Source: an uncultured virus (IMG/VR IMGVR_UViG_3300009285_007005)
Taxonomy: Duplodnaviria > Heunggongvirae > Uroviricota > Caudoviricetes
IMG/VR virus record: IMGVR_UViG_3300009285_007005
DNA: 64,000 nucleotides
Strand: one strand, 5' to 3'
The translations under genes and the position numbers were made by a program. Within the stretch, counting starts at the first letter, position 1; every line of letters starts with the position of its first letter. This document shows, piece after piece, positions 27,407-52,181 of the stretch. The notes beneath the pieces are model-generated. The model searched no databases, was not told where the DNA came from, and was given only the letters and a program-made list of their open reading frames with translations.

Positions 27407-27895
27407 TTAGAAATCGCCGCAAATCCATGCTTGTTGGGCATCGGCTTGGCAAAGCGCATAAGTCCCACCATCCACGGCCTCTGTCGCACAGACTATAAGG
27501 GCGGCATGATATCCGGCCTCGCAGGTATAAAAATCAAACTTCCAGTCCGTGCATTCATTGGCCATACCACAATCCGCTAATACTTGATTTCCGTCCCGAA
27601 GTATTGTCTCGGTGCAGACATGCCAAGTTTTCCATTCCTCGCCGAAATCCGTAGGCATCACACCGCATTCGATTTCCGGATGCTGATCGACCGGATTCTC
27701 ATACTCGCATTCCATCCAGACCTCGGCGCAGGAAGGGGCGTCCGTATCGTCGCCTCCCGTGTCATCATCGGCGTCGTCGCCTTCCGTGTCGTCGTCCAGA
27801 ACCGCATCCTCGCCCGGATCGCCCTTCTCTCCAGCCGCGCAAGCCGCCAGGGCAAGGATGACCGCCAGAATCCCGAATCCCCAAAAGCGTTTCAT
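27407..27895 (-). CDS. Lipoprotein moron with Asp-rich linker and Cys-rich domain
   Basis: Lipobox 'LALAAC'; 'DDDTEGDDADDDTGGDDTD'; about 10 further Cys. Confidence 0.75.
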   Translation of the reverse strand: MKRFWGFGILAVILALAACAAGEKGDPGEDAVLDDDTEGDDADDDTGGDDTDAPSCAEVWMECEYENPVDQHPEIECGVMPTDFGEEWKTWHVCTETILRDGNQVLADCGMANECTDWKFDFYTCEAGYHAALIVCATEAVDGGTYALCQADAQQAWICGDF

Positions 27896-28068
27896 TTTGA
27901 GCCTCCGTCTAAAATTGTTTCACATGAAACATCTTGTTTCTTTCCCATCTCGGCGACAATCAGGTCCCGGAGAACCTGGGAAATCGAACAATGCCGGGAT
28001 TTGGCCTGTTTTCGAGCCCATTCCTTCATTTCGTCGTCGAGGTGGATTTTGAGTTCTTTCTTCCTCAT
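27892..28068 (-). CDS. Ribbon-helix-helix (CopG/Arc-like) protein, 58 aa, absent from the ORF track
   Basis: MRKKELKIHLDDEMKEWARKQAKSRHCSISQVLRDLIVAEMGKKQDVSCETILDGGSK*; ATGA overlap with the lipoprotein. Confidence 0.8.
   Translation of the reverse strand: MRKKELKIHLDDEMKEWARKQAKSRHCSISQVLRDLIVAEMGKKQDVSCETILDGGSK
27916..27931. promoter_or_regulatory. parS: parS-like centromere site
   Basis: TGTTTCACATGAAACA, one mismatch from the canonical palindrome TGTTTCACGTGAAACA. Confidence 0.75.
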
Positions 28069-28103
28069 GGACCCACTGTGGACCCACTTTAGCCCCTTGT
28101 CAA
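28068..28103 (-). promoter_or_regulatory. Sigma70-type promoter for a leaderless RHH mRNA, with tandem operator repeats
   Basis: TTGACA(28103-28098)-17 bp-CACAGT, then 6 nt to ATG; AGTGGGTCCA occurs twice across the -10/+1 region. Confidence 0.6.
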
Positions 28104-28522: not shown

Positions 28523-28562
28523 AAAACGCAAAAGGCCCCTCCGGGATTGCCGGAAGGGCCTT
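28523..28562 (-). terminator. Rho-independent terminator (minus strand)
   Basis: AAGGCCCTTCCGG-CAATC-CCGGAGGGGCCTT followed by TTGCGTTTT. Confidence 0.7.
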
Positions 28563-28650
28563 GGTTCATCGGTGCGGCCTTTTGTTGCTGAGGCGCGAAG
28601 CCGCACGGAAGGGAATTTTCGAGTTTTGTCTTGCACCTCAGCATAAGCCG

Positions 28651-28679
28651 AAAATAAACAATCTCTCCAGGTTTGTCAA
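28651..28679 (-). promoter_or_regulatory. Sigma70-type promoter driving a short structured transcript
   Basis: TTGACA(28679-28674)-17 bp-TATTTT(28656-28651). Confidence 0.6.
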
Positions 28680-28700
28680 GAGAAATCTCGTCAAGAGGAA

Positions 28701-28760
28701 ATTTTCCGGTAATTTCACCGTAATTTCGGCACGTGCAGATTTTCCGGTAATTTTACCGTA
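28701..28760. repeat. 22-bp direct repeat pair with internal dyad (operator- or iteron-like)
   Basis: ATTTTCCGGTAATTTCACCGTA (28701-28722) and ATTTTCCGGTAATTTTACCGTA (28739-28760). Confidence 0.8.
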
Positions 28761-28872: not shown

Positions 28873-29382
28873 ATGGACCTTGAAGCACGTTTTCACGAAT
28901 TCCTCGAAAAGTACATCGAAGAAAAAACCCAGACAAGAATGCGTTTGGAGCAGGGCGAGGGGATCATGGAAGCCCTGCGGGTGACGGACGAAAAAGTCAC
29001 CGAGGCCATCGCCAGACTTACGGAAACCGTGATGAATATGCGTTTTGTTTGCGCGCAAAACCATCCCGACGAGAACACGGAAAGGCGAAGAAATCGGTTG
29101 GTTTCCCCGCAAACTATGGGGGAGTGGATTCGATCTATCAGTGTGCTCGTCGCCATTGTAATCGGCATTCTCGGCGGGGCGATCTCGGGGATCAAGGCGC
29201 TTGTTTCGCCGAGTCCGTCCGGCTCCCTGGTGACGACAACCGAGGCCGAGAAGACCGCCGCAGCCCTGGAAAGGCTCGGAGTCGCCTTTGCGAAACTCGA
29301 AAAAGAGGTTGACGGAACCCGATGCATCGTCCTGCCCGCCGGTGAAGCCCCGCTGAAGGGCGATGCCGGGAGCAATCCATAG
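28873..29382 (+). CDS. Coiled-coil protein with a single membrane helix
   Basis: GGAGAGG RBS; 'ISVLVAIVIGILGGAISGI'. Confidence 0.55.
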   Translation: MDLEARFHEFLEKYIEEKTQTRMRLEQGEGIMEALRVTDEKVTEAIARLTETVMNMRFVCAQNHPDENTERRRNRLVSPQTMGEWIRSISVLVAIVIGILGGAISGIKALVSPSPSGSLVTTTEAEKTAAALERLGVAFAKLEKEVDGTRCIVLPAGEAPLKGDAGSNP

Positions 29383-29539
29383 TGCGCTGACAGTGGCCGA
29401 AGATGATGAAATGCTTGACTGACAAAATCCCAAAAAACTCCGCGCCCAGGACTTCCGTTTGCGTAAGCGGCGGACGGTTTCCATCAAGCAGCCGCATCGA
29501 GTCCTGGACGCGGATTCATTTCGGAAGGGGAAAATCATC

Positions 29540-30178
29540 ATGAATCAATGCCCGATCTGCGGCTTTAAAGGAAAATTCAACGATTTTCGCGGTCGGGTCG
29601 AAGCCCGCTGCCCCAAATGCGGCTCCCTTGAGCGCCACCGTTGCCAGTGGATTGCTTTTCAAAAGGAGGTGAAGCCCAAACTTCCACCCTTTCCGACGAT
29701 TCTTCACACCGCTCCGGAACCGTGCATCGCCGGTCGTCTTCAAGCATTGACTCATCCCGGCCGATATCTCGGGGTTGACATCGCTCCACGAAAGGACTGC
29801 ATTGAAGCGGATCTTCGCAGACTTCCTTTCGGGCAACATTTTGTCGATTTCGTCTGGAGCAGCCACGTCCTCGAACACATCGAGGATGCCGCTGCGGCGA
29901 TTCATGAAATCGTCCGCGTGATGAAGCCGGGAGCCTTGGCCCTTCTGGACGTGCCGGTCTGCTGCCACGTCAAGGAAGTCGAGAAGTACCGGAAAGTGAC
30001 GGCGGTGAAAAATACCGGGCCGGACGCTCAGGGGCATTGGTGGAAACCGGGCCTGGATTGGTTCCACCGGTACAAGTCGGCGGGACTCGTCATCGAAAAG
30101 CATTTCAGCCCCGGCGATTTTGACGCCGGAATCCGTCCTCCCGCCACAATGGACCTCATTCTCGCGCGGAAACCCTGA
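29540..30178 (+). CDS. Class I SAM methyltransferase with N-terminal Zn ribbon
   Basis: 'CPICG...CPKCGSLERHR', 'ILHTAPEP', 'SHVLEHI...EIVRVMKPG'. Confidence 0.88.
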   Translation: MNQCPICGFKGKFNDFRGRVEARCPKCGSLERHRCQWIAFQKEVKPKLPPFPTILHTAPEPCIAGRLQALTHPGRYLGVDIAPRKDCIEADLRRLPFGQHFVDFVWSSHVLEHIEDAAAAIHEIVRVMKPGALALLDVPVCCHVKEVEKYRKVTAVKNTGPDAQGHWWKPGLDWFHRYKSAGLVIEKHFSPGDFDAGIRPPATMDLILARKP

Positions 30179-30180
30179 CG

Positions 30181-31704
30181 ATGAAAAAAGACGCCGTTTT
30201 CTTTTCCAACGGGATCGGCAACTTCATCCTTGCGACGCCGCTGATCCGGCAACTCGATAACCCCGAAATCGTGATCCCGGCGGATGATGCGCGGGCCGCG
30301 GCCGTCGAAAGCCTCTCCTTGTGGCCGGTGCGTCGCGTAAGCCGGTCCGAGATAGCCGCATGCGCCGGCCAATACGGCCGGTGTCTCGTTCTCTGGTGTT
30401 TTCCGCAGGAATGGGCGCCGCAAGGACCGAACGTCATCCTGCAGCCATCTCCGGATTGGAGCAAGAGCGCCCACGAGACCGAAACCTACCTGAGTCTTTT
30501 GCCGGGAGCAAAGCCGGAAAAGACGGCCATCAAAACACGGCGCTCCTGGGATTTGCACCTCGGATCGCATCAACGCCTGGTTGCGATCTGCGACGGCGCC
30601 AATTCGCGGGCTCGCTGGAGGAATAAACGGCTGCCGGCAAGGGTTGTGGCGCGCCTCGCCCGCGAGCTTCTCGAAGCCTATCCCGATCTCCAATTCGTTT
30701 ACCTCGGAGACGAATCGGAAAAGATCATCGGCGATTCCGTCAAAATGCTGATCGGGAACCGCTGTTGGAACTTCGCCGGGCTGCTTTCCTTCGCCGAATC
30801 CTGCGGCCTTCTCGCTCAGTCGGATATGGTCATCACGAACGATACGGGGCTTATGCACGCCGCGGACGCGCTCGACCGGCCGATCGTGGCGATATGGTTT
30901 TGGACAAGCTGGGCAAAAAACCATCCCTGGAACGCAAAGGAGATTCGAGCGGTTAAGAGCCCCGGCGGCGGCTGTCCTCATTTCCCCTGCTTCGGCAAGC
31001 CGGAAATGTGGTCCTGCAATAATCCGGTCTGCACGTCCATTCCCTTCACCTGGATTTTTGAAGCCGCGCGGGAACTCGTCGTCGAAGCCTTCGCGGAAAA
31101 ACACGAATCCCCAAAGCCCCGAAAAATCCAGCCGAAGGAAATTCAAAAAGCCGTGGAGGATTACGGGGTCAACCACTGGCTGAAAAATCACGTATATCGA
31201 AACCTCCACACGAAGCCCTGGCACGCTTCCAGAATCAAGACGGTCTGCGAGAACATCCGCGGGAATTCCATTCTCGACGTGGCGTGTGCGACGGGCGAGC
31301 TGACGGCCGAGATCAAAAAAGCCGCAAACCCGGCGCGCATCGTCGCTTACGAGGGCTGCGGGGCCGTCCTGGAACAAGGGCGGGCGTGGCATCCCGACAT
31401 CGAATGGGTGCAAGGCCTGGTCGAGGATCTTCCAAAGCCGTTCCCGAAAAAGTCCTTTGACTCCATTCACGCCGGAGAAATCCTGGAGCACGTCACGGAC
31501 CCCAAGGGATTCATCAAGCGCCTCTCCGGGTTGACGCGGAACCAGCTTGTTCTCACGACCCCGAAAGATGTGGTGGTGGACCCGGGGCACGTTGCGATCT
31601 TCACCGAAGCCGCGCTCAAGGAACTTCTGGAAGTGCGTTTTCGGCAGGTGCGGATATTGGAATCCGAGCGTTCTTTCGTTGCCGTTGCGGAAAGGCCGCG
31701 ATAA
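30181..31704 (+). CDS. GT9 (heptosyltransferase-like) glycosyltransferase fused to a SAM methyltransferase
   Basis: 'GIGNFILATP', 'ITNDTGLMHAADAL'; C-terminal 'ILDVACATG', 'GEILEHV'. Confidence 0.88.
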   Translation: MKKDAVFFSNGIGNFILATPLIRQLDNPEIVIPADDARAAAVESLSLWPVRRVSRSEIAACAGQYGRCLVLWCFPQEWAPQGPNVILQPSPDWSKSAHETETYLSLLPGAKPEKTAIKTRRSWDLHLGSHQRLVAICDGANSRARWRNKRLPARVVARLARELLEAYPDLQFVYLGDESEKIIGDSVKMLIGNRCWNFAGLLSFAESCGLLAQSDMVITNDTGLMHAADALDRPIVAIWFWTSWAKNHPWNAKEIRAVKSPGGGCPHFPCFGKPEMWSCNNPVCTSIPFTWIFEAARELVVEAFAEKHESPKPRKIQPKEIQKAVEDYGVNHWLKNHVYRNLHTKPWHASRIKTVCENIRGNSILDVACATGELTAEIKKAANPARIVAYEGCGAVLEQGRAWHPDIEWVQGLVEDLPKPFPKKSFDSIHAGEILEHVTDPKGFIKRLSGLTRNQLVLTTPKDVVVDPGHVAIFTEAALKELLEVRFRQVRILESERSFVAVAERPR

Positions 31705-32423
31705 TGGACCCGCGCGACATTCCCCGCGTCTATCTCACGATGGCCTGCAACTTCCAGTGCGCTTACTGCCCGCAGATCCGTCCGCCGAAAAACAGGGCGT
31801 CGATCCCGGCCGGAGAGTGGATCGAAATCCTCAATTCGTGGTCCGGCGACGCGGTGATTCTCGCCGGCGGGGAGCCGACCATCCGGCTGGACTTCGCGGA
31901 GATCGTCAACGGCCTGCGGCACAAAGAGGTCAGACTTTACAGCAACCTCTCTTTCTCCGTTTCGCTCCTAGACCGGATTAAGCGCCCCTTGGCCTTTTAC
32001 GCCTCTTTTCATCCATCGGGGAAAGTGGATGCTTCAAGGGCCGCATCCCTTTTGCTGGCGGCGCTTGCCAAAAAGCACCGGCTCATCAATGTGCATATAA
32101 ATCGCGCCGCTGGCGATCCGGCTACTTATATCAGGATTTTCAGACGCCAGGGCTTCGACTTGAAAATCGAAGACGATCTTTTTAAGCATCCGAATCTGGC
32201 CGCGATGAGGAAATTTCCTCTGGGAAAGGTCGTCTGTTCTCTCCGGCGCACTTATCTGGGGCCGGACGGAAAGCGATATATCTGCGTCCGCAAGCTCGAA
32301 GAAGCGGACCCGACCGGCATCGTCGATCATCGGAATCCCGTTGCGGTTCTTCCGTGTGATAGGTACGGCGAATGCAGTCCGTGCGACTGTCCCCACCGAA
32401 CCGTCGCGAGTGGAAAGCCATGA
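31704..32423 (+). CDS. Radical SAM protein with Cys-rich C-terminus
   Basis: 'CNFQCAYC', 'GGEPT', 'LGPDGKRYIC', 'CSPCDC'. Confidence 0.88.
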   Translation: MDPRDIPRVYLTMACNFQCAYCPQIRPPKNRASIPAGEWIEILNSWSGDAVILAGGEPTIRLDFAEIVNGLRHKEVRLYSNLSFSVSLLDRIKRPLAFYASFHPSGKVDASRAASLLLAALAKKHRLINVHINRAAGDPATYIRIFRRQGFDLKIEDDLFKHPNLAAMRKFPLGKVVCSLRRTYLGPDGKRYICVRKLEEADPTGIVDHRNPVAVLPCDRYGECSPCDCPHRTVASGKP

Positions 32424-33484
32424 AGCCGGAAATCAGGATTTTATGGGTGACGGATATCCGATTTGACCGCGCGAAAGGCGATTGGTCCCAGACGATTTAC
32501 AACCTCCGGGCCATCGCCTCCCAGGAAATCGTGGTTGACGTGATGCATCCTCCCGGCGACGCCAAGCAGCAGGCGAACTTCGAAGTTTCCATCCCCGGCG
32601 TCGCCTATCACCGGAATACGAACGTCGGAAGAGCGGCCGAACTTCTTTGGAGGAGCGGGAAATATGCGGCGGCGATCGCGCGCGGCCCCGTCATCGCTCT
32701 CGACCTCGCAAGGTTTGTGCCGAAAAACCGCCTGATCGCTTATATCTATGGAAATTATTTTTCCGCGCCTGACCGGACGCTCAATCTGGTTTGGAAGTCC
32801 TGCGGCCAAATCATCGTCCAGGGAGAAGGACAATTGGCTTACATTAAAGCCAAGGGGCTTCCGATGGATCATGTCGTTGCCATCCCCAGCGTGATCGATG
32901 CCCAAAGATTTCTATCGGAAGTGCCCGTTGTCGGCGCAATCGGGTCTCTTTATACCTTCCAGTGCGTGGACCTTTGCATTGATGTCGTCAACAATATTCG
33001 AAAGAACATTCCGAACTGCCGGCTCATGGTCATCGGGAACGAAATGACCCAACCGCCTTCGGCATGGGAAGATAATCTTCTTCGTTGTATTCGAGGGACT
33101 CCCTGGATTGACTGGATTCCGGTTATCACTCACGAGGCTTTGCCGCTCGTTTATCATGAAATGAATCTGCTGCTTTCTCTTTTTGATCCGAACAGGGATC
33201 TCAACCGACCTTATTGCGCACATCTGCTCAAAACCAAGGTTCTGGAAGCTATGGCGGCCGGCGTTCCCGTCGTGGCGAACCGCTCATGGGGGAATCGTCA
33301 TCTACTTGGGGAAAATTACGAATATTTTGCGGATACTGTGGAAGAAGCGGTCCCGATCACGGTTCAAATTCTGAAAAATGCCTCGCTTCAGGAAAAAATA
33401 GGGAAAGAATTGATTGCTAGAGCCGCAGGTTTTGATCTTCCCGTCATCGGCAAAATGTATGCTGGGCTTTTTAGGAAAATTTAA
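32420..33484 (+). CDS. GT4-family glycosyltransferase
   Basis: 'TKVLEAMAAGVPVVAN'. Confidence 0.85.
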   Translation: MKPEIRILWVTDIRFDRAKGDWSQTIYNLRAIASQEIVVDVMHPPGDAKQQANFEVSIPGVAYHRNTNVGRAAELLWRSGKYAAAIARGPVIALDLARFVPKNRLIAYIYGNYFSAPDRTLNLVWKSCGQIIVQGEGQLAYIKAKGLPMDHVVAIPSVIDAQRFLSEVPVVGAIGSLYTFQCVDLCIDVVNNIRKNIPNCRLMVIGNEMTQPPSAWEDNLLRCIRGTPWIDWIPVITHEALPLVYHEMNLLLSLFDPNRDLNRPYCAHLLKTKVLEAMAAGVPVVANRSWGNRHLLGENYEYFADTVEEAVPITVQILKNASLQEKIGKELIARAAGFDLPVIGKMYAGLFRKI

Positions 33485-33524
33485 TGGCAAATGTTTGCAG
33501 AAACCCGTTCCAAGGAGGAATCAA

Positions 33525-34643
33525 ATGAATGACGACAAATTGATCTTCGACGCTCCGGACATCCCTGAAGCGGATGCCAAGGGGCAGGCGGAAATCGCCG
33601 ATACGTTCACCGCTGCCGAGAAGGTTGCGTTCATCGGCGCCGGGGCGGGAGGGTGCCGGGTCGCGGATGCGTTCTGGAAACTCGGATACCGGCGCGTCCT
33701 GGCCTTGAACACGACCGATCAGGACATGGCGCAACTGGCTTGCCCGAATCGTTTGATTATCGGGGCCGCTTCGGGCGCCGGAAAAGACCCAGCCAAGGGT
33801 AAACTGGCGGTTGAAGCCGAGATGGGAACGGTGGTTGACAAGATGCGTGAGGTCTTCGGTCCCGCGAAGCGGATTCTGATCTGCTGCGGGGGAGGCGGGG
33901 GCACCGGCACCGGGGCCGCGATTCCGCTGATTGAAGCGGCCAAGCGGTATGCCGACGCGACTGGCATGGAGAAAAAGATCGGCCTGATTGTCACGGTTCC
34001 CAAACGCACCGAAAGCGCCAAGGTGCAGGGCAACGCCTATCATCTGCTGGCCGAACTGTTCAGCCTGGTTGACGCCGGTTCGATCTCGCCCCTGATTCTG
34101 ATCGACAACGATACCGTGATCGGGCAATTTCCCAAGCTTTCAGCAGGCCCCGCCTATTGGGCCACGATCAACGATTACGTGGCCAGACTGTACCACGCCT
34201 TCAATCTTCTGGCCGGCCGCGAATCCGATATGGAGGTCTTCGATCCGCAGGAGTACAGGTCCGTCCTCGAATCCGGCTTCGTGGTCTTCGGGGCGGCAAG
34301 AATCGACGCTATGGACCGATCCTCAATCAGCGAAAGTATGCGCAAGGCGCTCCAAGCCAATTTCCTTTCCGAAGGCGTTGACTTCGGGACGGCCAAGTTC
34401 GCCGCGGCCTTGGCGGTGGCAAACGCTGAAACCCTGGATAAGATCCCGCGCGACGACATCGACCACGCGATCTCCATGCTGGCTCAATTCCTGAAGGTGG
34501 AAACGGTCTGCCTTGGGATTTACGAGGGCAACAACCCCGACCTACGGCTTTATACCATCGTGGGCGGACTGGAAGCCCCGCACGCACGGCTGGCTGACCT
34601 CCAAAAGCGCGGGATGATCGAAGAGAACGGCAAAGAAGGCTGA
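33525..34643 (+). CDS. FtsZ/tubulin-superfamily GTPase (TubZ/CetZ/PhuZ-like, not canonical FtsZ)
   Basis: 'FIGAGAGGCRVAD', 'ALNTT', 'GAGKDPAKG', 'GGGGGTGTG', 'ILIDND', T7-loop-like 'VFDPQEY'; AAGGAGG RBS. Confidence 0.9.
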   Translation: MNDDKLIFDAPDIPEADAKGQAEIADTFTAAEKVAFIGAGAGGCRVADAFWKLGYRRVLALNTTDQDMAQLACPNRLIIGAASGAGKDPAKGKLAVEAEMGTVVDKMREVFGPAKRILICCGGGGGTGTGAAIPLIEAAKRYADATGMEKKIGLIVTVPKRTESAKVQGNAYHLLAELFSLVDAGSISPLILIDNDTVIGQFPKLSAGPAYWATINDYVARLYHAFNLLAGRESDMEVFDPQEYRSVLESGFVVFGAARIDAMDRSSISESMRKALQANFLSEGVDFGTAKFAAALAVANAETLDKIPRDDIDHAISMLAQFLKVETVCLGIYEGNNPDLRLYTIVGGLEAPHARLADLQKRGMIEENGKEG

Positions 34644-34645
34644 GA

Positions 34646-35425
34646 ATGACCGCCGTCAAGATTTTCGTCTCCGTCCGCGACCGCTACCGTCAGACCGTGG
34701 CTTGCGTCGATTCGCTCAGTGCGACGACGGCGGGAAAGGCTGATATCTGCATTTACGACAACGGTTCGGAAGCGGAATTCGAGCCGCTGCAAAAGGCTTA
34801 TCGGGGCTGGCTTGCAAGTTGGAAGGTTTCGCAAGTCGTCTTGAATCGGCCGGACCTGCTATCGGGAGTCTACTGGTCCAAGAATTTCGCTTGGGCGCAG
34901 TTCCTCGCCATGATGGAACTCCTGCCGCCCTCGGAACGGGAATACCTCGTCATGGCCGACAACGATATCGTGGCAAAGCCCGGATGGCTGGAAGCATCCC
35001 TTAAAATCCTGGGCAAAGCCGAAAGCGATATCGCGGTGGTGAGTCCCTACGACGGGCCGCCCGACCCCAAGAGCAATCCGGAAATCTTCCATGTTCTCGA
35101 AGAAGCCGTTATTCAGGGACATAGGATTGAAATCCGCGACGCCTGCTGCTCCCGCCTCTGGGTTGCGCCCTACCGCTTCTGGCGGCGCTGGCCTCCTCCG
35201 ACTCACGAGCGGATTGAGCGGGATGGAAAACCCGACCGGATGCCGACCGACTGGTACTACTGGACGAAGATGCGGGAGGCGCGGCTGCGCTTCGCCGTCC
35301 TGACGCCTCCGCTTGCTCACAATCCGCAGCATTCGTGGTCTTCCGCCCGAATGGGCAACGGCATCGGAGCCGATTGCAAGGGGGAAAAGTCAACTTCTCC
35401 CAGCTTAAAGCCTGGGAGTTTGTAA
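34646..35425 (+). CDS. GT2-family glycosyltransferase
   Basis: 'ICIYDNGS', DxD 'ADND', 'PGWLE'. Confidence 0.82.
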   Translation: MTAVKIFVSVRDRYRQTVACVDSLSATTAGKADICIYDNGSEAEFEPLQKAYRGWLASWKVSQVVLNRPDLLSGVYWSKNFAWAQFLAMMELLPPSEREYLVMADNDIVAKPGWLEASLKILGKAESDIAVVSPYDGPPDPKSNPEIFHVLEEAVIQGHRIEIRDACCSRLWVAPYRFWRRWPPPTHERIERDGKPDRMPTDWYYWTKMREARLRFAVLTPPLAHNPQHSWSSARMGNGIGADCKGEKSTSPSLKPGSL

Positions 35426-35481
35426 CTGAGGGGTGCTCGATTGCACAGTGCTCGCTACTATAAGCCGTCGGTGAAAACTCA

Positions 35482-36594
35482 ATGAAAGTTCTGACGTTCC
35501 TGGAAAAGCCTGATCCGAAGGGAAAGCTGGTCGGAATTTCCGTCAACGGTCTCAGGATGGGCGGCTGCTCTTTCGTATTCCCCGACGGCATGGTCGATCA
35601 TCTGAAAAAGACCAAATACGCCTCTTACATCGCCAAATGCGAGGACCTGGTTGCGAAACCGTACAATGGCGAGCCGCTTCACGGAAAAACGATCCTCATG
35701 GTTCGCGCCGGCGGCTACGGCGACCTGCTCTTCCTAACGCCGTTGATTCGGAAGCTGAAACGGCTCTATCCGTCCTGCCGGATCGCCTTTGCGACGATGG
35801 GCGACAACACAATGGTTTTTTCCGGAAATCCGGATATCCTGAGATATTATTCCTATCCGATCCCTCTCCCGGCTTTTGAATCGGCTGATTTCCACATCCT
35901 CTTCGAAAATACGCTGGAAATGTCGAAGGACCCCGAACTGCACGCCGTCGATCTCTTCGCCGCCCATGCGCACGTCTCGCTTAATTTCGATGAAAAGATC
36001 CCGATCTACAGCCCGAGCCCGGCGAGAGTGGAGGCGGTGAGGCTGCGGCTGATCGAAAAGGGAATCCGACCGGACGTTCCCTGGATTGCCGTTCAACCGG
36101 CGGCGTCCTCTCCGATCCGGACCTACCCGGAACACCTCATGGCGAAAGTGATCGAAAAGCTCGTCCATTGCGGGAATGCCGTTCTTGTGCTGGGGAAGAA
36201 AGGCAATTTCCCCAAAAAGGCCCGGCAGGGCGGCGTATTCGACCTCTGTGGGGCTTTTGACGGCATGGCCGACTCTGTAGCTGCTCTCGCATCCTGCCGC
36301 GCCCTGGTGGCCCCTGATTCGTCCCTGACGCACTTCGCCGCGGCGATAGGCATTCCCACGGTCGCGCTCTACGGACCCTTCCCTGGGGCCGTCAGGACGA
36401 AATACTACCCCCGCTGCGTCACCCTGGAAGCCAAGGCGGACTGTGTGCCCTGTATGCTCCATGGCCACAAGCCCTGTCCGGAAGCGCAGAAGCTCTCTCA
36501 AGTGTGGTCTCCCTGCTTCGAATCCGTCTCTCCGAAGGCGGTTGTCGAGCAGGTCATGAATTTGAGGATGCAAAATGAGCAAAAAACAGCCTGA
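35482..36594 (+). CDS. GT9 (heptosyltransferase-like) glycosyltransferase
   Basis: 'RAGGYGDLLFLTP', 'VAPDSSLTHFAAAIGIPTVALYGP'. Confidence 0.9.
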   Translation: MKVLTFLEKPDPKGKLVGISVNGLRMGGCSFVFPDGMVDHLKKTKYASYIAKCEDLVAKPYNGEPLHGKTILMVRAGGYGDLLFLTPLIRKLKRLYPSCRIAFATMGDNTMVFSGNPDILRYYSYPIPLPAFESADFHILFENTLEMSKDPELHAVDLFAAHAHVSLNFDEKIPIYSPSPARVEAVRLRLIEKGIRPDVPWIAVQPAASSPIRTYPEHLMAKVIEKLVHCGNAVLVLGKKGNFPKKARQGGVFDLCGAFDGMADSVAALASCRALVAPDSSLTHFAAAIGIPTVALYGPFPGAVRTKYYPRCVTLEAKADCVPCMLHGHKPCPEAQKLSQVWSPCFESVSPKAVVEQVMNLRMQNEQKTA

Positions 36595-36784
36595 CGATGA
36601 ATTCGACGACGCCGATATCCCGCTACAGGACTTCAGCGAGCCCGAGCAGCCGGCTCCCGGCCAAGGTGATCTTTGTACGCGCTGCCAGTCCTGCCTCCCC
36701 AAGCAGCGGTGCGCAAGGCAAGCCGAGATGCCGGACCTGTATCTGACAGAATCAGGCGAAGAGAACTGCGACCTCTTCACCTAG
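36575..36784 (+). CDS. Small acidic Cys-containing protein
   Basis: GAGG RBS; 'CTRCQSC'. Confidence 0.45.
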   Translation: MSKKQPDDEFDDADIPLQDFSEPEQPAPGQGDLCTRCQSCLPKQRCARQAEMPDLYLTESGEENCDLFT

Positions 36785-36844
36785 AAGGAAGAAAAAACCC
36801 AGCCCCTTCCCGCCGTAAGGCGTTACCCAAGACCTCTCCCATTC

Positions 36845-36872
36845 GGCCCGGATGCGTCCGGGCCTCTTTTTT
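36845..36872 (+). terminator. Rho-independent terminator ending the glycan/tubulin operon
   Basis: GGCCCGGA-TGCG-TCCGGGCC followed by TCTTTTTT. Confidence 0.8.
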
Positions 36873-36873
36873 C

Positions 36874-36902
36874 GTGTGCAGCCGGTGTGCATCGGTTGGC
36901 AC
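36874..36902. promoter_or_regulatory. Putative integrase arm-type sites
   Basis: GTGTGCA (36874), GTGTGCA (36885), TTGGCAC (36896) at 11-bp spacing, about 120 bp from the att core. Confidence 0.5.
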
Positions 36903-36921
36903 TAATTACCATCAATTACAA

Positions 36922-37161
36922 TCAATCTCTCGCAATTCCCATTGTCCAGAAGGGAGAGATGAGGCCATTGGGGCGGGATGCAACTTGGCGATATTTAAGA
37001 GATTTCCATTCAATTCCAACGGTTTGCGAAAGGGGGGACTCGAACCCACACGGGCTAAGCCCACTGGACCCTATCGCCTTGGCGAGCCGAAAAGGCTTCC
37101 CGTCAAATTTTTTCTTGACCAACTCCCGTATTCGATCAGATATGATTGGAATATCCAGCAC
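36922..37161 (-). pseudogene. N-terminal fragment of an XRE/CI-type repressor interrupted by the att core
   Basis: 'ISDRIRELVKKKFDGKPFRLAKAIG' then tRNA-derived 'SSGLSPCGFESP'; divergent from the early promoter. Confidence 0.6.
37025..37073 (-). mobile_element. att core: 3' half of tRNA-Leu(TAG)
   Basis: Minus strand TAG GG TCCAG T GGGC-TTA-GCCC GT GTGGG-TTCGAGT-CCCCC CTTTCGC A: anticodon, long variable arm, T arm and acceptor 3' strand; the 5' half is absent. Confidence 0.85.
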
Positions 37162-37194
37162 TTAAAAAATTCTTTAAAATCTTTTATTTTTTTG

Positions 37195-37223
37195 TTGACA
37201 AGGCCTCTGTTTTCTTTTACTCT
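37195..37223 (+). promoter_or_regulatory. Early rightward sigma70 promoter
   Basis: TTGACA-17 bp-TACTCT with an AT-rich upstream region. Confidence 0.7.
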
Positions 37224-37282
37224 CGCAATCGCTGAATCGGGGAAAACCCGATTTCGAGGAAATAGTGGGGCAAAATAGCAAA

Positions 37283-37534
37283 ATGCAAGAAGGAACGCAA
37301 TCCATCCAACCCCCGGATGAACTCGTTTCCCCTACCGAAGCCGCGCGGAGGCTTGGCATTACTCCGGGGACATTGGCGATCTGGGCGGATGAGGGGAAAG
37401 TTCCCTGCATCAAAACGGAAGGCGGGCATCGGCGATACCTGATTTCCGCTATCGATGCTCTCCTGAAAAAATTGTCCTGCAAACCAGAGACCGAAATCCC
37501 GGATGAGCCGAAAACTGAACCGGAGGCGACATGA
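37283..37534 (+). CDS. Excisionase-like / MerR-type HTH protein (Cro position)
   Basis: 'VSPTEAARRLGITPGTLAIWADEGKVPCIKTEGGHRRY'. Confidence 0.85.
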   Translation: MQEGTQSIQPPDELVSPTEAARRLGITPGTLAIWADEGKVPCIKTEGGHRRYLISAIDALLKKLSCKPETEIPDEPKTEPEAT

Positions 37535-37842
37535 AAACTCCGGCACGCGCCACCTCCATCCCCAAACGCGGATTCTCCGTCAAAGAATCTGCCATCTATC
37601 TCGGCGTCTCCCAGTGGACCGTCCGAAAGTTGATCGCTGCCGGACGATTGCCTCACTGTTTTGCGGGGGAGCCTTTCGATCCCTACCGGTTCACCCGCGG
37701 AAAGCGCAGCAAGGGGAAAATCGTCATCCTCAAAGAAACGCTCGATGAACTTCTCGACAATATGCACCAGTATGGCGCTCTTCCGGACCTTGAATCGCCA
37801 AATCCTTTAAAATTAGCCTCCGGCGGTCAGGCTCCGGTTTAG
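37531..37842 (+). CDS. Excisionase-like HTH_17 protein
   Basis: 'FSVKESAIYLGVSQWTVRKLIAAGRLP'. Confidence 0.8.
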   Translation: MKTPARATSIPKRGFSVKESAIYLGVSQWTVRKLIAAGRLPHCFAGEPFDPYRFTRGKRSKGKIVILKETLDELLDNMHQYGALPDLESPNPLKLASGGQAPV

Positions 37843-37901
37843 TTTCGATTTTCGTATTTCGTTTCATGCCGGCAGAATAAGCCGGCCGTGGGAGAAGGGG
37901 A

Positions 37902-38375
37902 ATGAGAGATTTGAAAAATGATTCTCATGTTAGTTTTTTCGAAATCATCCAATCCGAAATCCACCACCATCCGGAATTATCCGCCGCACAGATAGCGGAT
38001 CGCGTCGGCAAGGCCTTATCGACTTTTTATAACGAATTGAATCCCGACGTTAAGGAGGCGAAACTCGGCGTTGGAACCTACAGAATCTATCTGCGCGAGA
38101 CGCATTGCCTTGCCTCGCTGGATCTCATCGAATCGGAAAACGGCCGCGTGGCCATCGATCTCCGCAAGATCGGGAACGGATCGAAGGATGTCCAGGTCTG
38201 CGCCGCCGCCATGCTCAAGGGTGCCGGCGAACTCCTCGAAATGTTCACCTCCTTGAACGGGAAAGGAAACGCTCAGGAAAGGCGGCGGGAACGGGATCAA
38301 TTCAACAAGAAGGCCGATCAAGCCATCGCGGCTGTCGAACTTTTCCGGCGGGCCGTAGTGAAGGGGAAATCATGA
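37902..38375 (+). CDS. Phage CII-like regulatory protein
   Basis: 'AQIADRVGKALSTFYNELNPD...AKLG'. Confidence 0.65.
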   Translation: MRDLKNDSHVSFFEIIQSEIHHHPELSAAQIADRVGKALSTFYNELNPDVKEAKLGVGTYRIYLRETHCLASLDLIESENGRVAIDLRKIGNGSKDVQVCAAAMLKGAGELLEMFTSLNGKGNAQERRRERDQFNKKADQAIAAVELFRRAVVKGKS

Positions 38376-40371: not shown

Positions 40372-41631
40372 ATGAGCACGGCTGTTGCAAAAATCGAACA
40401 ATTGAACCGGATGAGTCCGGACGAACTGAAAAAACAACCCGCGGAAGCCTTGGCGGTTTACGCCGACAGCCTGCGCTCGAACAAGATCGCGGCCCTGGGG
40501 GACGGGCAGGTCTTCGTCAGGCGGGATGAGAAGGGCGTGGCGCGCGGTTTTGTCGGGCAAGTCAGCCTTTCCGTCAAGAACAACGAAATCTACAACGTCC
40601 AGGGCAAGACGAAGATTTCCGCGGACGGCTATACGAAGCTCAATCAGATTGCCGGTGTTTCCATCGTGACGCCTCCGACTCTGAGTCTCCCGGATGGTCA
40701 GCGGGTCGTCAACCCCTACATCCTGCGCGAAACGGACCCCATGACGAAACGCTCAAGGACCGTAGGCGTCTGGGTTCGGAAAACAGCGGTGGGATACGCG
40801 CCGACCGGAAGCCTCATGGTGATTGACGGGTCGCTCTATCTCGACCTGGAGATTTACTTCCTCCAGGACGTGATGAAGAAGATTTCCAAAGCCAAGGAGG
40901 CCGGTCGCCTTTGCCTCTTCGGACAGATCACGGATGAGGAGAAGAAAACCTGTCTCATCCTTCCCTACCAATTTGGAATTTACGTCGTCGCCAAACTTTC
41001 TCATCAGGAAATTCTCTCCGCGCTCGACACTCATATCCAGCGGCAGAAGTTCGCGGAGCGTGTCGCGGTCACGATCTGCGAGCGAAACGTGCTTCGGAAA
41101 CATCCAGCCATCGCCGCCTCTCAGGTCGATGCTCTCGCCAAAGGGGAAAGCTGGGACAAGATGCCCGACAAGGTGCAGGTGAAAGTCTTCGGATGGGCGC
41201 ACGACATGACTCCGAAAGATATCGAGAAAGCCGCCCATGCCGCCGATTCCGATGAGCCGACTCCAGGCGTCCAGGTTCAGCGGTCAACCGTGAAAACGAC
41301 CGAAACCGAAGAGGGCCAAACAATCGACATGGAGGATATGGAGGGAGCCTACGAAGATGCGGCAACGGAAGAGGCGGGTGGAAAAGAACCCAGTAAGCCT
41401 GCCGACGAAGGGGGCGAGGATGAACCGCCCAAGCCCTTCGAATTCGATCCCACGCAGACCCCGAAGATGCAGAAGGAAGCCCTGATCGAAGTTTACGGCC
41501 TCAATCCCTTCATCGCGGCCTGGGATGAAACGGTCGGAACGGAATGGACGAAAGCCTCTCCCGAGCAAAAGCGCGAAGCCCTCATCAAGATCGCCGATCA
41601 ACTCAAAAAGATGCAGGAGGCGACCGAATGA
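40372..41631 (+). CDS. Single-strand annealing protein-like (RecT/Bet-like), tentative
   Basis: 'ISADGYTKLNQIA', 'ERVAVTICERNVLRK', acidic C-terminal linker; upstream of the SMC ATPase and helicase. Confidence 0.5.
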   Translation: MSTAVAKIEQLNRMSPDELKKQPAEALAVYADSLRSNKIAALGDGQVFVRRDEKGVARGFVGQVSLSVKNNEIYNVQGKTKISADGYTKLNQIAGVSIVTPPTLSLPDGQRVVNPYILRETDPMTKRSRTVGVWVRKTAVGYAPTGSLMVIDGSLYLDLEIYFLQDVMKKISKAKEAGRLCLFGQITDEEKKTCLILPYQFGIYVVAKLSHQEILSALDTHIQRQKFAERVAVTICERNVLRKHPAIAASQVDALAKGESWDKMPDKVQVKVFGWAHDMTPKDIEKAAHAADSDEPTPGVQVQRSTVKTTETEEGQTIDMEDMEGAYEDAATEEAGGKEPSKPADEGGEDEPPKPFEFDPTQTPKMQKEALIEVYGLNPFIAAWDETVGTEWTKASPEQKREALIKIADQLKKMQEATE

Positions 41632-43880
41632 GGCTGACACGACTCACCATCAGCGGACTCAAGGGGCAGCAGGCAACCCATGAATTCACCGGGGCGGAAC
41701 TTCTGCTCGGCCCCAACGGTGTCGGGAAATCCGCACGCCTGAACGCCGTCGAAATTCTGATTCTCGGCTACGCTCACCGTCCCGATGGACAGCGATACGA
41801 GACGATGGAACTCGCATCGGGCGACGACCTTGAAGTCAGCGGGGAATTCGACGTGGGAGAAGTCATCAACTTCCGCGCTTCCCGCCGCTTCCATCGAAAG
41901 AAAAGCGGCTCCATCACTCAGATCGTCACGATCAACGGCGAAGAAATCTCTACCACGGATGGCGAGAGGATCATCGCGGAACGGCTCGGCAAGGTTCCAG
42001 TGATGTTCAACCCGATGGAATTCCTTTCCAAAACCCCTGACAAGCGGCGGGAATTCCTGCGACCCTATCTGCCCGCAATCGGTGGGGATGTTCTGGAAGA
42101 GATCGTTTACGGAACCTACCGGGAAGTCCTGACAGGCGAAGCGACGGATGCGGTTCTGTCGGTCATCGCCGAGGGAAAGCCCTTTCATGAACTTCCTAAA
42201 GAGCAGGGGTTGGTAGTCCTCGATCAATTGGCGTCGATGGTCCAGAAAAAGGATCAGCGGGCAATGGATGGAATCTCTGTGGTCGCCTGCGTCATGCACA
42301 ACTGCCAGAACGGCGCGCCCGAAGCCACTCTCGAAAAAGCCCACCTTCGGATCAAGGACGAGATCAAGGTCGCCAAACGGAAAGTCGGAGACGCCGAAAA
42401 GACGGTCAAAACCCTCTCGGCCCAGAAGGCGACGGCCGCGGCTACGGCATCGGGCCGTCCCGAACTCGAAACCGAGATCGCCAAGCTGAAAATCGACATC
42501 CTGAACGCCGAACGCGCCAAGTCCGCCGGTGCCGAGAAGGAAAAGGCTCACACCGAGCGCCAGGAACGCCTCAGCAAGCTCGAAACGAAGCGGGCGGGGC
42601 TTTCAAGCCCGGTGGATCTTTCTGGGCTTGAGGCTGATCTGAAGGCCAAGAACGAGGCATTGGGGAAGGCTAGGACCGCCCTGACAACCGCCCTTGACGA
42701 ATGGAAAGCCGATCAACAGTCGGATTTCCCAGAACAGAAAATCGGGGGATTTTACCTCAAATCCAATGCGGATGTTCTGGGCGCTCTTGCTCAGAAAATT
42801 TCCGGTATTGAGGTTTGCATCGGCTCAAAAGAACATTACATCGTCACCCCCCCCCTCGATCTCACCTGCCCCGGATGCGGTCTTGCGCTAAAGCCCGATA
42901 CGCAAAAGGTTCAGCAGGAAATCAGCGCACTCAATATCGATCTGAAAACCTCAAAGGCGGAATACAAGAAACTGGACGACGAAGGCAACAAATATGTCGC
43001 TGGGTTGTGCTCCAAGGCTGAGGGCATCAAGGGCCTACGGGAAAACCTGAAAACCGCCAAAGAAGAAGCCAACACCGCCGCCGATGAATTTTCGAAAGCA
43101 GTCACTTCGGAATCCGAACGGGAGGGCAAACTCGCCGAGGTCGAAGAGGAAATCTTCGCCATTCAAAAGCAGGATCAGGCCGACTCCGGGAGCAACCTGG
43201 AAGACCTGGAAGCCCAAATTCGGGGCCTGAACTCCAGCCTGCAAACAAAGGAAGCCGATCTCAAGAAAAAGGATTTGGCGCAGGGCATTCTCAACCAGAT
43301 CGAGAAATCCGTCCTGGACGCAAAGCTCGCCGAGAAGTCCCTGGAAATCTGGAAAATGGCCGAGCAGGGCTTGAAGTCCGTCCGCAACCGTCTCGTTGAC
43401 GGTCTGGTCAAAACGATCACGGAAACGGCGAACAACCTCCTGCGGCTCATCGACCCCGCGCTTTCTCTGGCCGTCATCCTGGAAGACGAGGAAGGCAACC
43501 AGGTCTTCGATCTCAGGTTCACGAAGGACGGCGCGACACGGAACCTCTCGGTGCTTTCCGGCGGAGAAACGATCCTGGCCGTCTCGGTGGCGCTGGCTAC
43601 GGCCCTCATCGCCATCGTGAAACCGCCGCTGCGCATCCTGGGGATCGAGGCCGCGGAAACGGATGGATTGAATCTGGAATCCTTACTTAAAGGAGCGAAG
43701 ACGATGCTGGATAACGGGCATCTCGACAACGTGCTCGTGGCCTCATGCGCCAAGGTTTATGACGCACAATATCTCAAGGAATTGGAAGGGCTCCCGGCGG
43801 AGATCAAGGACATCCTGATAAGGGAATGTGCGGTCGTCCCTGGCGGCTGGAACGTCATCCGGCTTGGGGGTGCGGGATGA
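41628..43880 (+). CDS. Rad50/SbcC-like SMC-family ATPase with zinc hook
   Basis: Walker A 'GPNGVGKS', coiled coils, 'CPGCG' hook, signature 'LSGGE'. Confidence 0.85.
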   Translation: MRLTRLTISGLKGQQATHEFTGAELLLGPNGVGKSARLNAVEILILGYAHRPDGQRYETMELASGDDLEVSGEFDVGEVINFRASRRFHRKKSGSITQIVTINGEEISTTDGERIIAERLGKVPVMFNPMEFLSKTPDKRREFLRPYLPAIGGDVLEEIVYGTYREVLTGEATDAVLSVIAEGKPFHELPKEQGLVVLDQLASMVQKKDQRAMDGISVVACVMHNCQNGAPEATLEKAHLRIKDEIKVAKRKVGDAEKTVKTLSAQKATAAATASGRPELETEIAKLKIDILNAERAKSAGAEKEKAHTERQERLSKLETKRAGLSSPVDLSGLEADLKAKNEALGKARTALTTALDEWKADQQSDFPEQKIGGFYLKSNADVLGALAQKISGIEVCIGSKEHYIVTPPLDLTCPGCGLALKPDTQKVQQEISALNIDLKTSKAEYKKLDDEGNKYVAGLCSKAEGIKGLRENLKTAKEEANTAADEFSKAVTSESEREGKLAEVEEEIFAIQKQDQADSGSNLEDLEAQIRGLNSSLQTKEADLKKKDLAQGILNQIEKSVLDAKLAEKSLEIWKMAEQGLKSVRNRLVDGLVKTITETANNLLRLIDPALSLAVILEDEEGNQVFDLRFTKDGATRNLSVLSGGETILAVSVALATALIAIVKPPLRILGIEAAETDGLNLESLLKGAKTMLDNGHLDNVLVASCAKVYDAQYLKELEGLPAEIKDILIRECAVVPGGWNVIRLGGAG

Positions 43881-51182: not shown

Positions 51183-51388
51183 CCCGCAAGGCCCTCATCA
51201 CCACCGCGATCAACACCCTGAAGTTCGAGGGGAAGATCGTTGTCGAGGCTGAAGCCTCCGCTCAGGCCAAGGACAATCCGCAATCGGACGACCGCGTGTA
51301 CCTCGCGGCGATGCACGCCCACGAGAAGGCGCTGGCGGGGAGAATCAGGGAACTAACGAAACCGGAGGTGAATCATGAGAGCATGTAA
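51179..51388 (+). CDS. Hypothetical protein
   Basis: ATGA-coupled ORF. Confidence 0.45.
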   Translation: MTRKALITTAINTLKFEGKIVVEAEASAQAKDNPQSDDRVYLAAMHAHEKALAGRIRELTKPEVNHESM

Positions 51389-52181
51389 ATTCGTTTATGG
51401 AGACGGCAGACCCTTCAATGCAGATGATGACAACCCATTCAAATATCCGCTTGAAATCGGAGCCGAGGTATCGCACAACGGGCCGGTGGGGCTCTGTCAT
51501 TCGGGACTGCACTTTTCACGCACCGAGGCCGATGCGATTGCTACGAACTCCCTGAAATTTGATTCCGAGCGCGGATTGATTTTCCTTGAAGCCGAGGTTG
51601 ACGAATCCGATATCGCCGAAACCGATTCGAATAAATTTGTTTTAAAAAGCGGAGCGAAGGCGAAAATCATCGCATTTGAAAATCGAAACCTTGTTGGCGC
51701 GGAAGGTGAACCGACTGAAATTAAATCGGGACTATGGATGCTTTCCGACTCCGCCGTGGTCAAGAGCATGGGGGGCTCCGCCGTGGTCGAGAGCATGGGG
51801 GGCTCCGCCGTGGTCGAGAGCATGGGGGGTTCCGCCGTGGTCGAGAGAATGGGGGGCTCCGCCGTGGTCGAGAGAATGGGGGGCTCCGCCGTGGTCGAGA
51901 GCATGGGGGACTCCGCCGTGGTCAAGAGAATGGGGGGCTCCGCCGTGGTCGAGAGCATGTGGGACTCCGCCGTGGTCGAGAGCATGGGGGACTCCGCCGT
52001 GGTCAAGAGCATGTGGGGTTCCGTTACTGTTATTACTTATAACGGAAAGATTGAACACATTATCGAAGATTCCAACGCTTTCATCGTCGATAGGAGCGAA
52101 GGGAAGCCAAAAGGCTACGACGCGGCGGCATGGGCGGGGAGAATCAGGGAACTCGTGAAGCCGGAGGGCGCGGATGCCTAG
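51375..52181 (+). CDS. Phage protein with 9-aa beta-solenoid tandem repeat
   Basis: 'LCHSGLHFS' N-domain; 10 copies of SAVV(E/K)(S/R)M(G/W)(G/D). Confidence 0.75.
   Translation: MRACKFVYGDGRPFNADDDNPFKYPLEIGAEVSHNGPVGLCHSGLHFSRTEADAIATNSLKFDSERGLIFLEAEVDESDIAETDSNKFVLKSGAKAKIIAFENRNLVGAEGEPTEIKSGLWMLSDSAVVKSMGGSAVVESMGGSAVVESMGGSAVVERMGGSAVVERMGGSAVVESMGDSAVVKRMGGSAVVESMWDSAVVESMGDSAVVKSMWGSVTVITYNGKIEHIIEDSNAFIVDRSEGKPKGYDAAAWAGRIRELVKPEGADA
51747..52023 (+). repeat. 27-nt tandem repeat, 10 copies
   Basis: Unit approximately CTCCGCCGTGGTCGAGAGCATGGGGGG. Confidence 0.92.

Follow-up and report, generated by a model that had tools for sequence, protein, structure and literature searches.

What is a tubulin-like GTPase doing in the middle of a block of glycosylation genes in a tailed phage? 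The question is raised by the IMG/VR record IMGVR_UViG_3300009285_007005, an uncultured virus of the Caudoviricetes, of which a stretch of 64,000 nucleotides (nt; hereafter the window) was analysed. At positions 33525-34643 of the plus strand, the window carries an open reading frame (ORF) of 372 amino acids (aa) with a stop-free translation, whose product (P0001) we describe as a tubulin-superfamily GTPase of TubZ/RepX-like type, and glycosyltransferase (GT) genes lie on both sides of it. The known phage tubulins are PhuZ, from the nucleus-building jumbo phages, and TubZ, which accompanies TubR in the plasmid prophage c-st. The sequence-only reading, i.e., an earlier annotation made from the letters of the DNA, had taken the product for a phage tubulin of undescribed role and had proposed that it scaffolds the glycosylation enzymes, poisons host division, or partitions an episome. 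The explanation we favour, with somewhat more than even confidence, is that the gene encodes a mobile cytomotive filament which positions phage DNA and which comes from a large, mostly phage-borne clade near TubZ and RepX.

Judging from its translation, the gene is intact and encodes a working tubulin-superfamily GTPase with a full set of GTPase motifs, as the sequence-only reading had it. The T1 glycine loop GAGAGG (residues 38-43; 33636-33653, plus strand) contains G38, G40, and G43, which are near-invariant in a 54-row alignment of the family, and the tubulin signature of the T4 region, GGGGGTGTG (residues 122-130; 33888-33914, plus strand), contains G125, G126, G128, and G130, which are invariant in 54 of 54 rows. 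The T7 synergy loop FDPQEY (residues 239-244; 34239-34256, plus strand) carries the acidic residues D240 and E243, the former again invariant (54/54), the latter occupying a position where at least 90% of the family have D. This loop had been called divergent, and it does differ from the FtsZ type; however, in the alignment to PDB sequences it lines up with FDASEF of RepX, so the supposedly divergent loop is a RepX-type DxxE in which both acidic residues are retained. The strong ribosome-binding site that had been noted is found as AAGGAGGA at 33513-33520 (plus strand), 4 nt ahead of the ATG at 33525. An alternative longer frame starts from a TTG at 33414 and would run into the upstream gene; because close relatives begin at the ATG position in the alignment, the ATG at 33525 is preferred.

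In profile searches, the window protein matched the Pfam family Tubulin (PF00091) with 47.3 bits against a cut-off of 33 (expect value, E, 3.9e-12) and Tubulin_2 marginally over threshold. TubZ-like_C (PF22453) reached 18.3 bits against a cut-off of 26 (E 0.0023), a cut-off that some relatives exceed (30.8 and 35.2 bits). Within PHROGs, the protein matched an unnamed family and, marginally, the PhuZ family phrog_4733 (E 0.032). The best PDB sequence match was RepX, the TubZ of pXO1-type plasmids (4ei7, E 7.7e-15), followed by FtsZ 9v7v, Aquifex FtsZ, TubZ-Bt, and c-st TubZ. When a profile of 54 family sequences was compared with PDB, RepX again came out best (6e-37, 131 bits), ahead of M. jannaschii FtsZ (7e-28), CetZ2 (1e-23), c-st TubZ (6e-23), and TubZ-Bt (6e-20). 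No PhuZ chain appeared among the PDB matches of either the single-sequence or the profile search.

An AlphaFold2 model built on the 54-sequence alignment (mean predicted local distance difference test, pLDDT, 92.6; predicted template-modelling score 0.90; first 20 residues uncertain) tells the same story. Together with the Foldseek matches, the model supports a two-domain tubulin fold consisting of a GTPase domain, a core helix, and an activation domain. The top Foldseek matches were TubZ-Bt protofilament chains (2xka, E 1e-24, query-normalised template-modelling score, TMq, 0.79) and 4ei7 (TM 0.79/0.78), with CetZ2 (TM 0.73/0.80) and FtsZ (about 0.65) ranking lower. At least 500 PDB chains were matched at E<=0.001, and all 38 of the matches listed were TubZ, CetZ, or FtsZ. 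The best match among predicted viral structures was a protein of an 'uncultured Caudovirales phage' (TMq 0.87), while PhuZ-type proteins scored 0.53-0.58. The last helix of the model spans residues 353-369 of 372 and no flexible tail follows it; FtsZ_C (PF12327) was unmatched in the Pfam scan of the protein, which bears out the claim that an FtsZ-type C-terminal linker and peptide are absent.

We also placed the protein in a quick LG+G4 tree of 85 rows chosen from 266 collected sequences, without any CetZ sequence. The rows comprised the window protein, its six closest relatives, every fourth other family protein of 320-560 aa, every fourth weak FtsZ-type match, 11 proteins from long contigs and metagenome-assembled genomes (MAGs), and six references (c-st TubZ, phiKZ PhuZ, and four plasmid RepX-like proteins). 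Canonical FtsZ formed a single clade of 16 rows with a stem of 1.34 and a support of 100 in the Shimodaira-Hasegawa-like approximate likelihood ratio test (SH-aLRT), and the window protein fell outside it, in a group of eight (SH-aLRT 100) with P0002-P0005, P0121, P0122, and L049. The protein is thus not nested in host FtsZ, in keeping with its score of 69.7 bits against the FtsZ equivalog TIGR00065, far below the cut-off of 295.2. The longest branch of the tree was phiKZ PhuZ, and c-st TubZ stood on a long separate branch.

As far as sequence and model can tell, no characterised tubulins stand closer to the window protein than TubZ and RepX, which serve in plasmid partition. RepX/TubZ of the pXO1 type (4ei7-4ei9) and TubZ-Bt of pBtoxis (2xka, 2xkb, 3m89) give the best sequence, profile, and fold match, and the likeness includes a TM of about 0.79 over some 385 columns, the DxxE T7 loop of RepX, a C-terminal helix, and carriage on a mobile element. 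Nevertheless, identity in the Foldseek alignments is only 20-23%, the window gene has no upstream tubR, iteron centromere, or flexible C-terminal tail, and its family has a conserved acidic N-terminal peptide and occurs mostly in phages of uncultured hosts, not on Bacillota plasmids. The c-st TubZ (3v3t, 4xcq) is likewise a tubulin-family gene in a tailed phage and is matched by the family profile, but it has TubR directly upstream, shows 22.8% identity (tblastn E=3), and branches far away. PhuZ of phiKZ and 201phi2-1, a phage tubulin thought to position phage DNA in lytic growth, is the functional analogy we favour, despite the weak similarity given above and the lack of an acidic C-terminal tail in the window protein. 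General scans of about 70 window ORFs, which included no dedicated shell model, turned up no nucleus-shell gene or other marker of nucleus-building phages. FtsZ and CetZ belong to the same superfamily, archaeal FtsZ being the second-best profile match and CetZ2 a good fold match, and FtsZ is set apart by the equivalog score, the C-terminal features, and the clade support already described. The sequence-only reading was therefore right that this is a real phage tubulin, distinct from PhuZ and from canonical TubZRC and undescribed in its role; it is a variant of the TubZ kind that lacks TubR and has its 'tail' at the N-terminus.

The family to which the protein belongs is large and found mostly on viral contigs. 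A word-indexed search gave 188 proteins at E<=0.001, among them 53 relatives at E<=5e-45 (33-71% identity), with the next match at 1.8e-13. An exhaustive search of 1.84 billion cluster representatives (50% identity) gave 1918 matches at E<=0.001, 431 at E<=1e-10, and 159 at E<=1e-30. For the metagenome relatives, the best 80 of 121 were used, some of them on duplicate IMG/VR contigs. At least 41 loci lie in IMG/VR and at least seven in a one-genome-per-species set of prokaryotes, the latter being five Chloroflexi-type MAG contigs, one deltaproteobacterial MAG, and one Woesearchaeota MAG. A tblastn search of 50,697 deposited phage records found no family member at E<=1e-5, and at E<=10 it returned only the TubZ proteins of c-st and D-1873 (E=3). 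Seven plasmid matches were obtained, all weak (25-30% identity), all from Bacillales, and mostly annotated 'plasmid replication protein'. The clade is undescribed in the literature covered by our full-text search, to which subscription journals do not belong; the words 'phage', 'virus', and 'viral' do not occur in PMC9871819, and PMC7824862 mentions two representatives of tubulin for jumbo phages.

Several relatives outside the window carry inteins. Among ten unusually long family members tested, six (P0137, P0139, P0165, P0182, P0208, and P0040) have their GTPase domain interrupted by an intein that carries a homing endonuclease of the LAGLIDADG or Hom_end type. For most carriers the intein lies at or adjoins the signature motif: in P0137, P0139, and P0182 the second matched stretch restarts at query residue 126-127, within GGGTGTG, and in P0165 and P0208 it restarts elsewhere. 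We count insertion in the GTPase domain as a sign of functional constraint on the family, and inteins in proteins of the tubulin family are, to our knowledge, unreported.

If the family has a common task, the genes around its members might point to it. We called and clustered ORFs in 128 relative loci and recognised the tubulin ORF in 116 of them as well as in the window; among these 117 sources, the ORF directly upstream was readable in 108 and the ORF directly downstream in 100. The neighbourhood varies by lineage, with the tubulin in a replisome operon, in a terminase/portal block, or beside FtsK and a TubR-like gene. The replisome layout runs RecA/UvsX, a 138-aa gene, a 93-aa acidic gene, tubulin, DnaB, and primase, and continues with nucleases and polymerase (PD-(D/E)XK exonuclease, PHP, exonuclease, Pol III alpha); the 93-aa gene is directly upstream of tubulin in 27/108 and the DnaB helicase directly downstream in 23/100. 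In the packaging layout, a sigma-like gene, an ERCC4 nuclease, the large terminase, and a gene of about 680 aa precede tubulin, and the ~680-aa gene is directly upstream in 23 of the 108. The third layout, FtsK/SpoIIIE followed by a tandem winged-helix protein and tubulin, was seen around distant family members on two Chloroflexi MAG contigs (L042, L045) and on one IMG/VR viral contig (L038), the last of which also has an HTH_ParB protein two genes downstream of tubulin. Its winged-helix protein matched an alignment built from the small genes that precede tubZ in five reference loci, with an hhalign probability of 86.6% (E 4e-6), which indicates a TubR-TubZ layout in part of the wider family, and these three loci echo c-st, where FtsK-like and ParB-like genes flank tubRZ.

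The 93-aa acidic protein deserves a remark of its own. In L018-L032 and similar replisome-type marine loci, it is always encoded directly upstream of tubulin, and it has invariant P12, D17, S20, E21, G25, and G26 as well as an NAMSLQY motif; it is a candidate partner or regulator. We considered it as a TubR-like protein and dismissed this (hhalign probability 0.1%).

In the window, the setting is a different one. The tubulin gene lies inside a sugar block of seven genes, all on the plus strand, which has the tail-fibre region on one side and a CII-type regulatory region on the other. The block opens with an S-adenosylmethionine (SAM) methyltransferase gene (29459-30178; PF08241, E 5e-12), followed by a fusion of a heptosyltransferase-like GT-9 with a methyltransferase (30181-31704; PF01075, E 1.3e-14, and PF08241, E 1e-10; TIGR02195, E 2e-18, below cut-off), a radical-SAM protein (31704-32423; PF04055, E 2.3e-8; phrog_13987), and a 370-aa GT-1 of the GT-B fold (32372-33484; PF13692, E 7e-10). 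Downstream of tubulin come a GT-2 (34646-35425; PF00535, E 5e-6), which begins 2 nt past the tubulin stop codon, and a heptosyltransferase-like GT-9 (35482-36594; PF01075, E 2e-12; TIGR02201 and TIGR02195 below cut-off). The observation that GT genes flank the tubulin on both sides was thus correct, with gaps of 40 nt to GT-1 and 2 nt to GT-2, and it is this arrangement that gave rise to the idea of a filament ordering the neighbouring glycosyltransferases into an assembly line. One distant relative lends the idea some company, since in L037 the tubulin is directly preceded by methyltransferase, radical-SAM, and GDP-mannose dehydratase genes.

The remaining loci tell heavily against such a scaffold. 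A phmmer search with the seven sugar-block proteins against 1794 ORFs outside the window, from the 128 relative loci, found no real homologue (best E 4e-4). In L049 (57% identity), the nearest relative whose surroundings are known, tubulin is flanked by a GroES-like gene and unknowns, with no glycosyltransferase in the vicinity, and in no relative do glycosyltransferases stand on both sides. A Pfam scan of 150 cluster representatives from within three genes of tubulin (150 of the 153 clusters of at least 105 aa) revealed, besides those of L037, a few sugar-related neighbours: GT-2 in L117, L056, and L042 and LicD/cytidylyltransferase in L113. We further counted sugar-type ORFs by gene distance, searching all ORFs with 15 sugar-type seeds. 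Their share was 8/208 (3.8%, two being the window's own) at distance 1, 5/178 (2.8%) at distance 2, and 4/159 (2.5%) at distance 3, versus 13/125, 9/115, and 9/104 (7.8-10.4%) at distances 5, 6, and 7, and overall such ORFs were no commoner beside tubulin than 5-12 genes off. The seeds came from near tubulin, which biases the count towards enrichment, yet none was seen. These phages commonly have sugar genes, which show no concentration around tubulin, and the dominant neighbourhoods are those of replication and packaging. Homologues show no consistent linkage to glycosyltransferases, so the scaffold inference fails on the very ground that the sequence-only reading had named as decisive; the neighbourhood data bring it close to refuted, and we find it scarcely credible. 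The GT neighbourhood of the tubulin gene is most plausibly incidental, a chance outcome of gene order.

Setting tubulin aside, the window shares with the other loci only DnaB, RuvC, a collagen-like fibre segment, and a marginal methylase (E 9.4e-6), and this paucity of common genes suggests that the tubulin gene moves between unrelated phages. A recent acquisition was considered on base composition and discarded: the G+C content at third codon positions is 0.737 in the tubulin gene and 0.746 in the sheath gene, i.e., equal to that of core virion genes, which argues that the gene is not a recent arrival and that it is resident rather than decaying. Its carrier has a virion module of the myovirus type (portal, protease, sheath, tape measure, and baseplate), as had been stated, and looks mid-sized, not jumbo. 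Positions 29000-38000 gave no megablast match to deposited phages, and the baseplate protein matched only distant phages of many hosts at no more than 31% identity.

The feature that sets the family apart from the known phage and plasmid tubulins is found at the other end of the protein. Ahead of the globular domain there is an N-terminal arm whose length is highly variable across the family and which in the window protein includes the peptide FDAPDI (residues 8-13; 33546-33563, plus strand). The family motif reads hydrophobic-D-[L/I]-P-[D/E]-hydrophobic, after which come acidic and proline-rich residues; under a loose pattern, 38 of the 54 rows of the first family alignment have it, its spacing to the G-box is nearly fixed (modes 30-33 residues), and one relative, P0009, has four copies. 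In the AlphaFold2 model the peptide region is of low confidence (pLDDT 62-69). We infer that this peptide is a docking element which replaces the C-terminal tails of TubZ, PhuZ, and FtsZ.

A lead to what the peptide might dock to is the D-[L/I]-P-x-hydrophobic core of the family motif, which resembles the C-terminal ...LDIPAFIRKK of two bacterial FtsZ proteins, P0105 and P0118. A host take-over could be imagined on this basis, in which the peptide imitates the FtsZ C-terminal peptide and the filament docks on, or competes for, anchors of the FtsA/ZipA type, with the result that phage factories are tethered to the membrane or that division is blocked. The fourfold repetition of the motif in P0009, as is often seen with docking peptides, and the placement of the peptide in a low-confidence region of the model would agree with this. 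However, the likeness to FtsZ spans five residues and is weak, the residues that follow the motif are acidic in the family and basic in FtsZ, the near-fixed distance between motif and core fits a structural contact better than a free linker, and FDAPDI of the window is among the less FtsZ-like variants. We therefore consider a host take-over of this kind very unlikely.

The reading that we prefer, a filament positioning phage DNA, would work as follows. The GTP-bound protein would polymerise head to tail, the T7 loop of one subunit (D240/E243) would complete the GTPase site of the next, and dynamic filaments would result. The acidic peptide on the flexible N-terminal arm would dock the filament to a cargo or anchor, in place of the C-terminal tail of TubZ, which is flexible and binds TubR. 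What such a filament would most likely move or position is phage DNA, be it in replication or packaging factories or as an episomal copy; this function is proposed by analogy and from the association of the family with replication and packaging genes. The gene itself would travel as a single accessory gene between unrelated phages, and in the window phage it would have landed in a glycosylation block, where it is probably co-transcribed and would have no functional coupling to its neighbours.

Several points weigh against this account, and we would like to set them out together. Polymerisation is something that we infer. The backbone of the tree is unresolved and does not prove a joint clade with RepX, so the term 'TubZ-like' relies on profile scores and fold ranking rather than on a supported clade. 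A stricter pattern recovers the N-terminal motif from no more than 74 of 202 family proteins; visible motif variants, or an N-terminus that is too short, are seen in many of the others. The narrow gaps to the two adjoining GT genes make co-expression likely and a local role possible, and besides the sugar genes directly upstream in L037, a few other loci have a GT-2, LicD, or cytidylyltransferase within one to three genes. Finally, profiles of TubR and TubR-like proteins found no such ORF among 470 window ORFs (best E 0.24) and the cargo adaptor was not identified in the window, nor is there an iteron array or tubC near the gene, where positions 32300-36700 contain only chance-like two-copy repeats.

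The last of these points bears on a classical partition system in particular. A control on the five reference loci (c-st and four plasmids) showed a gene of 81-119 aa directly upstream of tubZ in each; in the window, that slot, where tubR sits in TubZRC systems, is occupied by GT-1, and the statement that no adjacent TubR is present was accurate. A filament might still segregate an episomal prophage genome at host division through an adaptor other than TubR, e.g., a ParB-like protein on a parS-like site, and the window has candidates for both. The sequence-only reading had pointed to a ribbon-helix-helix (RHH) gene, repeats, and a parS site 5 kb upstream, and all of these exist, at a distance of about 5.5 kb, the RHH gene being recognised by eye only. 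The RHH-like ORF (27892-28068, minus strand, 58 aa; unmatched in NCBIfam) holds at its 3' end a 16-bp parS-like near-palindrome (27916-27931) with one mismatch to what we take to be the parS consensus, a match with at most one mismatch being found in 0/100 shuffles; two-copy repeats lie at 28068-28088 and 28684-28759. The ParB-like gene at 60159-61190 matched phrog_4715 (E 3e-10).

Other features of the window would suit an episomal prophage as well. A CII-like activator (PF06892, E 2e-8) and a helix-turn-helix protein of the HTH_17 family suggest a temperate phage, and the scanned window ORFs included no recognisable integrase, ParA, or terminase. ParB-type genes occur near other tubulins, four genes from tubZ in c-st and two genes downstream in L038, and the closest characterised relatives are themselves partition proteins. 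Against this, the parS-like site is 5.6 kb and the ParB-like gene 25 kb from tubulin, and the site belongs to another unit on the opposite strand. An identification of the 60159-61190 product as ParB did not hold up beyond PHROGs, Pfam and NCBIfam being unmatched and PDB giving E 0.78. Since no terminase was recognised, the window may not cover the whole genome, and an integrase could be encoded in the remainder. For most relatives, the setting is a replisome or packaging operon of a phage that shows no hint of lysogeny in the part of its genome seen, and we know of no ParB-TubZ partition system. Segregation of an episomal prophage is, on balance, rather unlikely.

The two ideas can be combined into a bolder one, a third kind of phage cytoskeleton, belonging to ordinary-sized phages without a nucleus, in which an inverted, N-terminal FtsZ-mimic peptide would plug into FtsA/ZipA-type anchors and the filament would position phage DNA or stop division; in the window phage it might instead team up with the ParB-like protein and the parS-like site in a hybrid machinery for partition that has neither ParA nor TubR. 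We regard this as quite unlikely.

A few further features of the window were noted. Downstream of the RHH-like gene lies a gene for a predicted 162-aa lipoprotein (27407-27895, minus strand) with a signal peptide and a LAAC lipobox, rich in acidic residues and cysteines, which forms a moron-like unit typical of temperate phages. On the same strand, 28525-28760 contains a good sigma-70-like promoter (TTGACA, 17 nt, TATTTT; 28679-28651) about 90 nt ahead of a strong terminator with a 13-bp stem (28562-28532), and the repeats at 28684-28759, two direct copies of 38 nt, are just upstream of the promoter; this unit could specify a small RNA, roughly 100 nt long, with the repeats as operators, and scans of the window with Rfam and for tRNAs gave no match. 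An array of a 27-bp unit repeated 10.2 times with 92% identity (51749-52023) was considered as a centromere or origin and rejected because it encodes in-frame nine-residue repeats: it lies in an ORF (51375-52181) with ten SAVVESMGG-like nonapeptides and a weak DUF7666 match. Ahead of a UvrD-type helicase gene, a gene pair at 40372-43880 encodes a 419-aa protein (40372-41631; phrog_32428, E 2e-69) that has no match in deposited phages and a 778-aa SMC/RecF-like ATPase (NF045487, E 4e-16, below cut-off), and the pair may be a recombination or anti-defence module.

The link to glycosylation, which first drew attention to this gene, does not hold. What takes its place is a clade far larger than the known settings of phage tubulins, spread over unrelated and mostly uncultured phages of ordinary as well as large size, which would offer small, simple tubulins for study. 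Should its members assemble into filaments inside infected cells, the active organisation of infection by a cytoskeleton would be far commoner among phages than the work on jumbo phages suggests.

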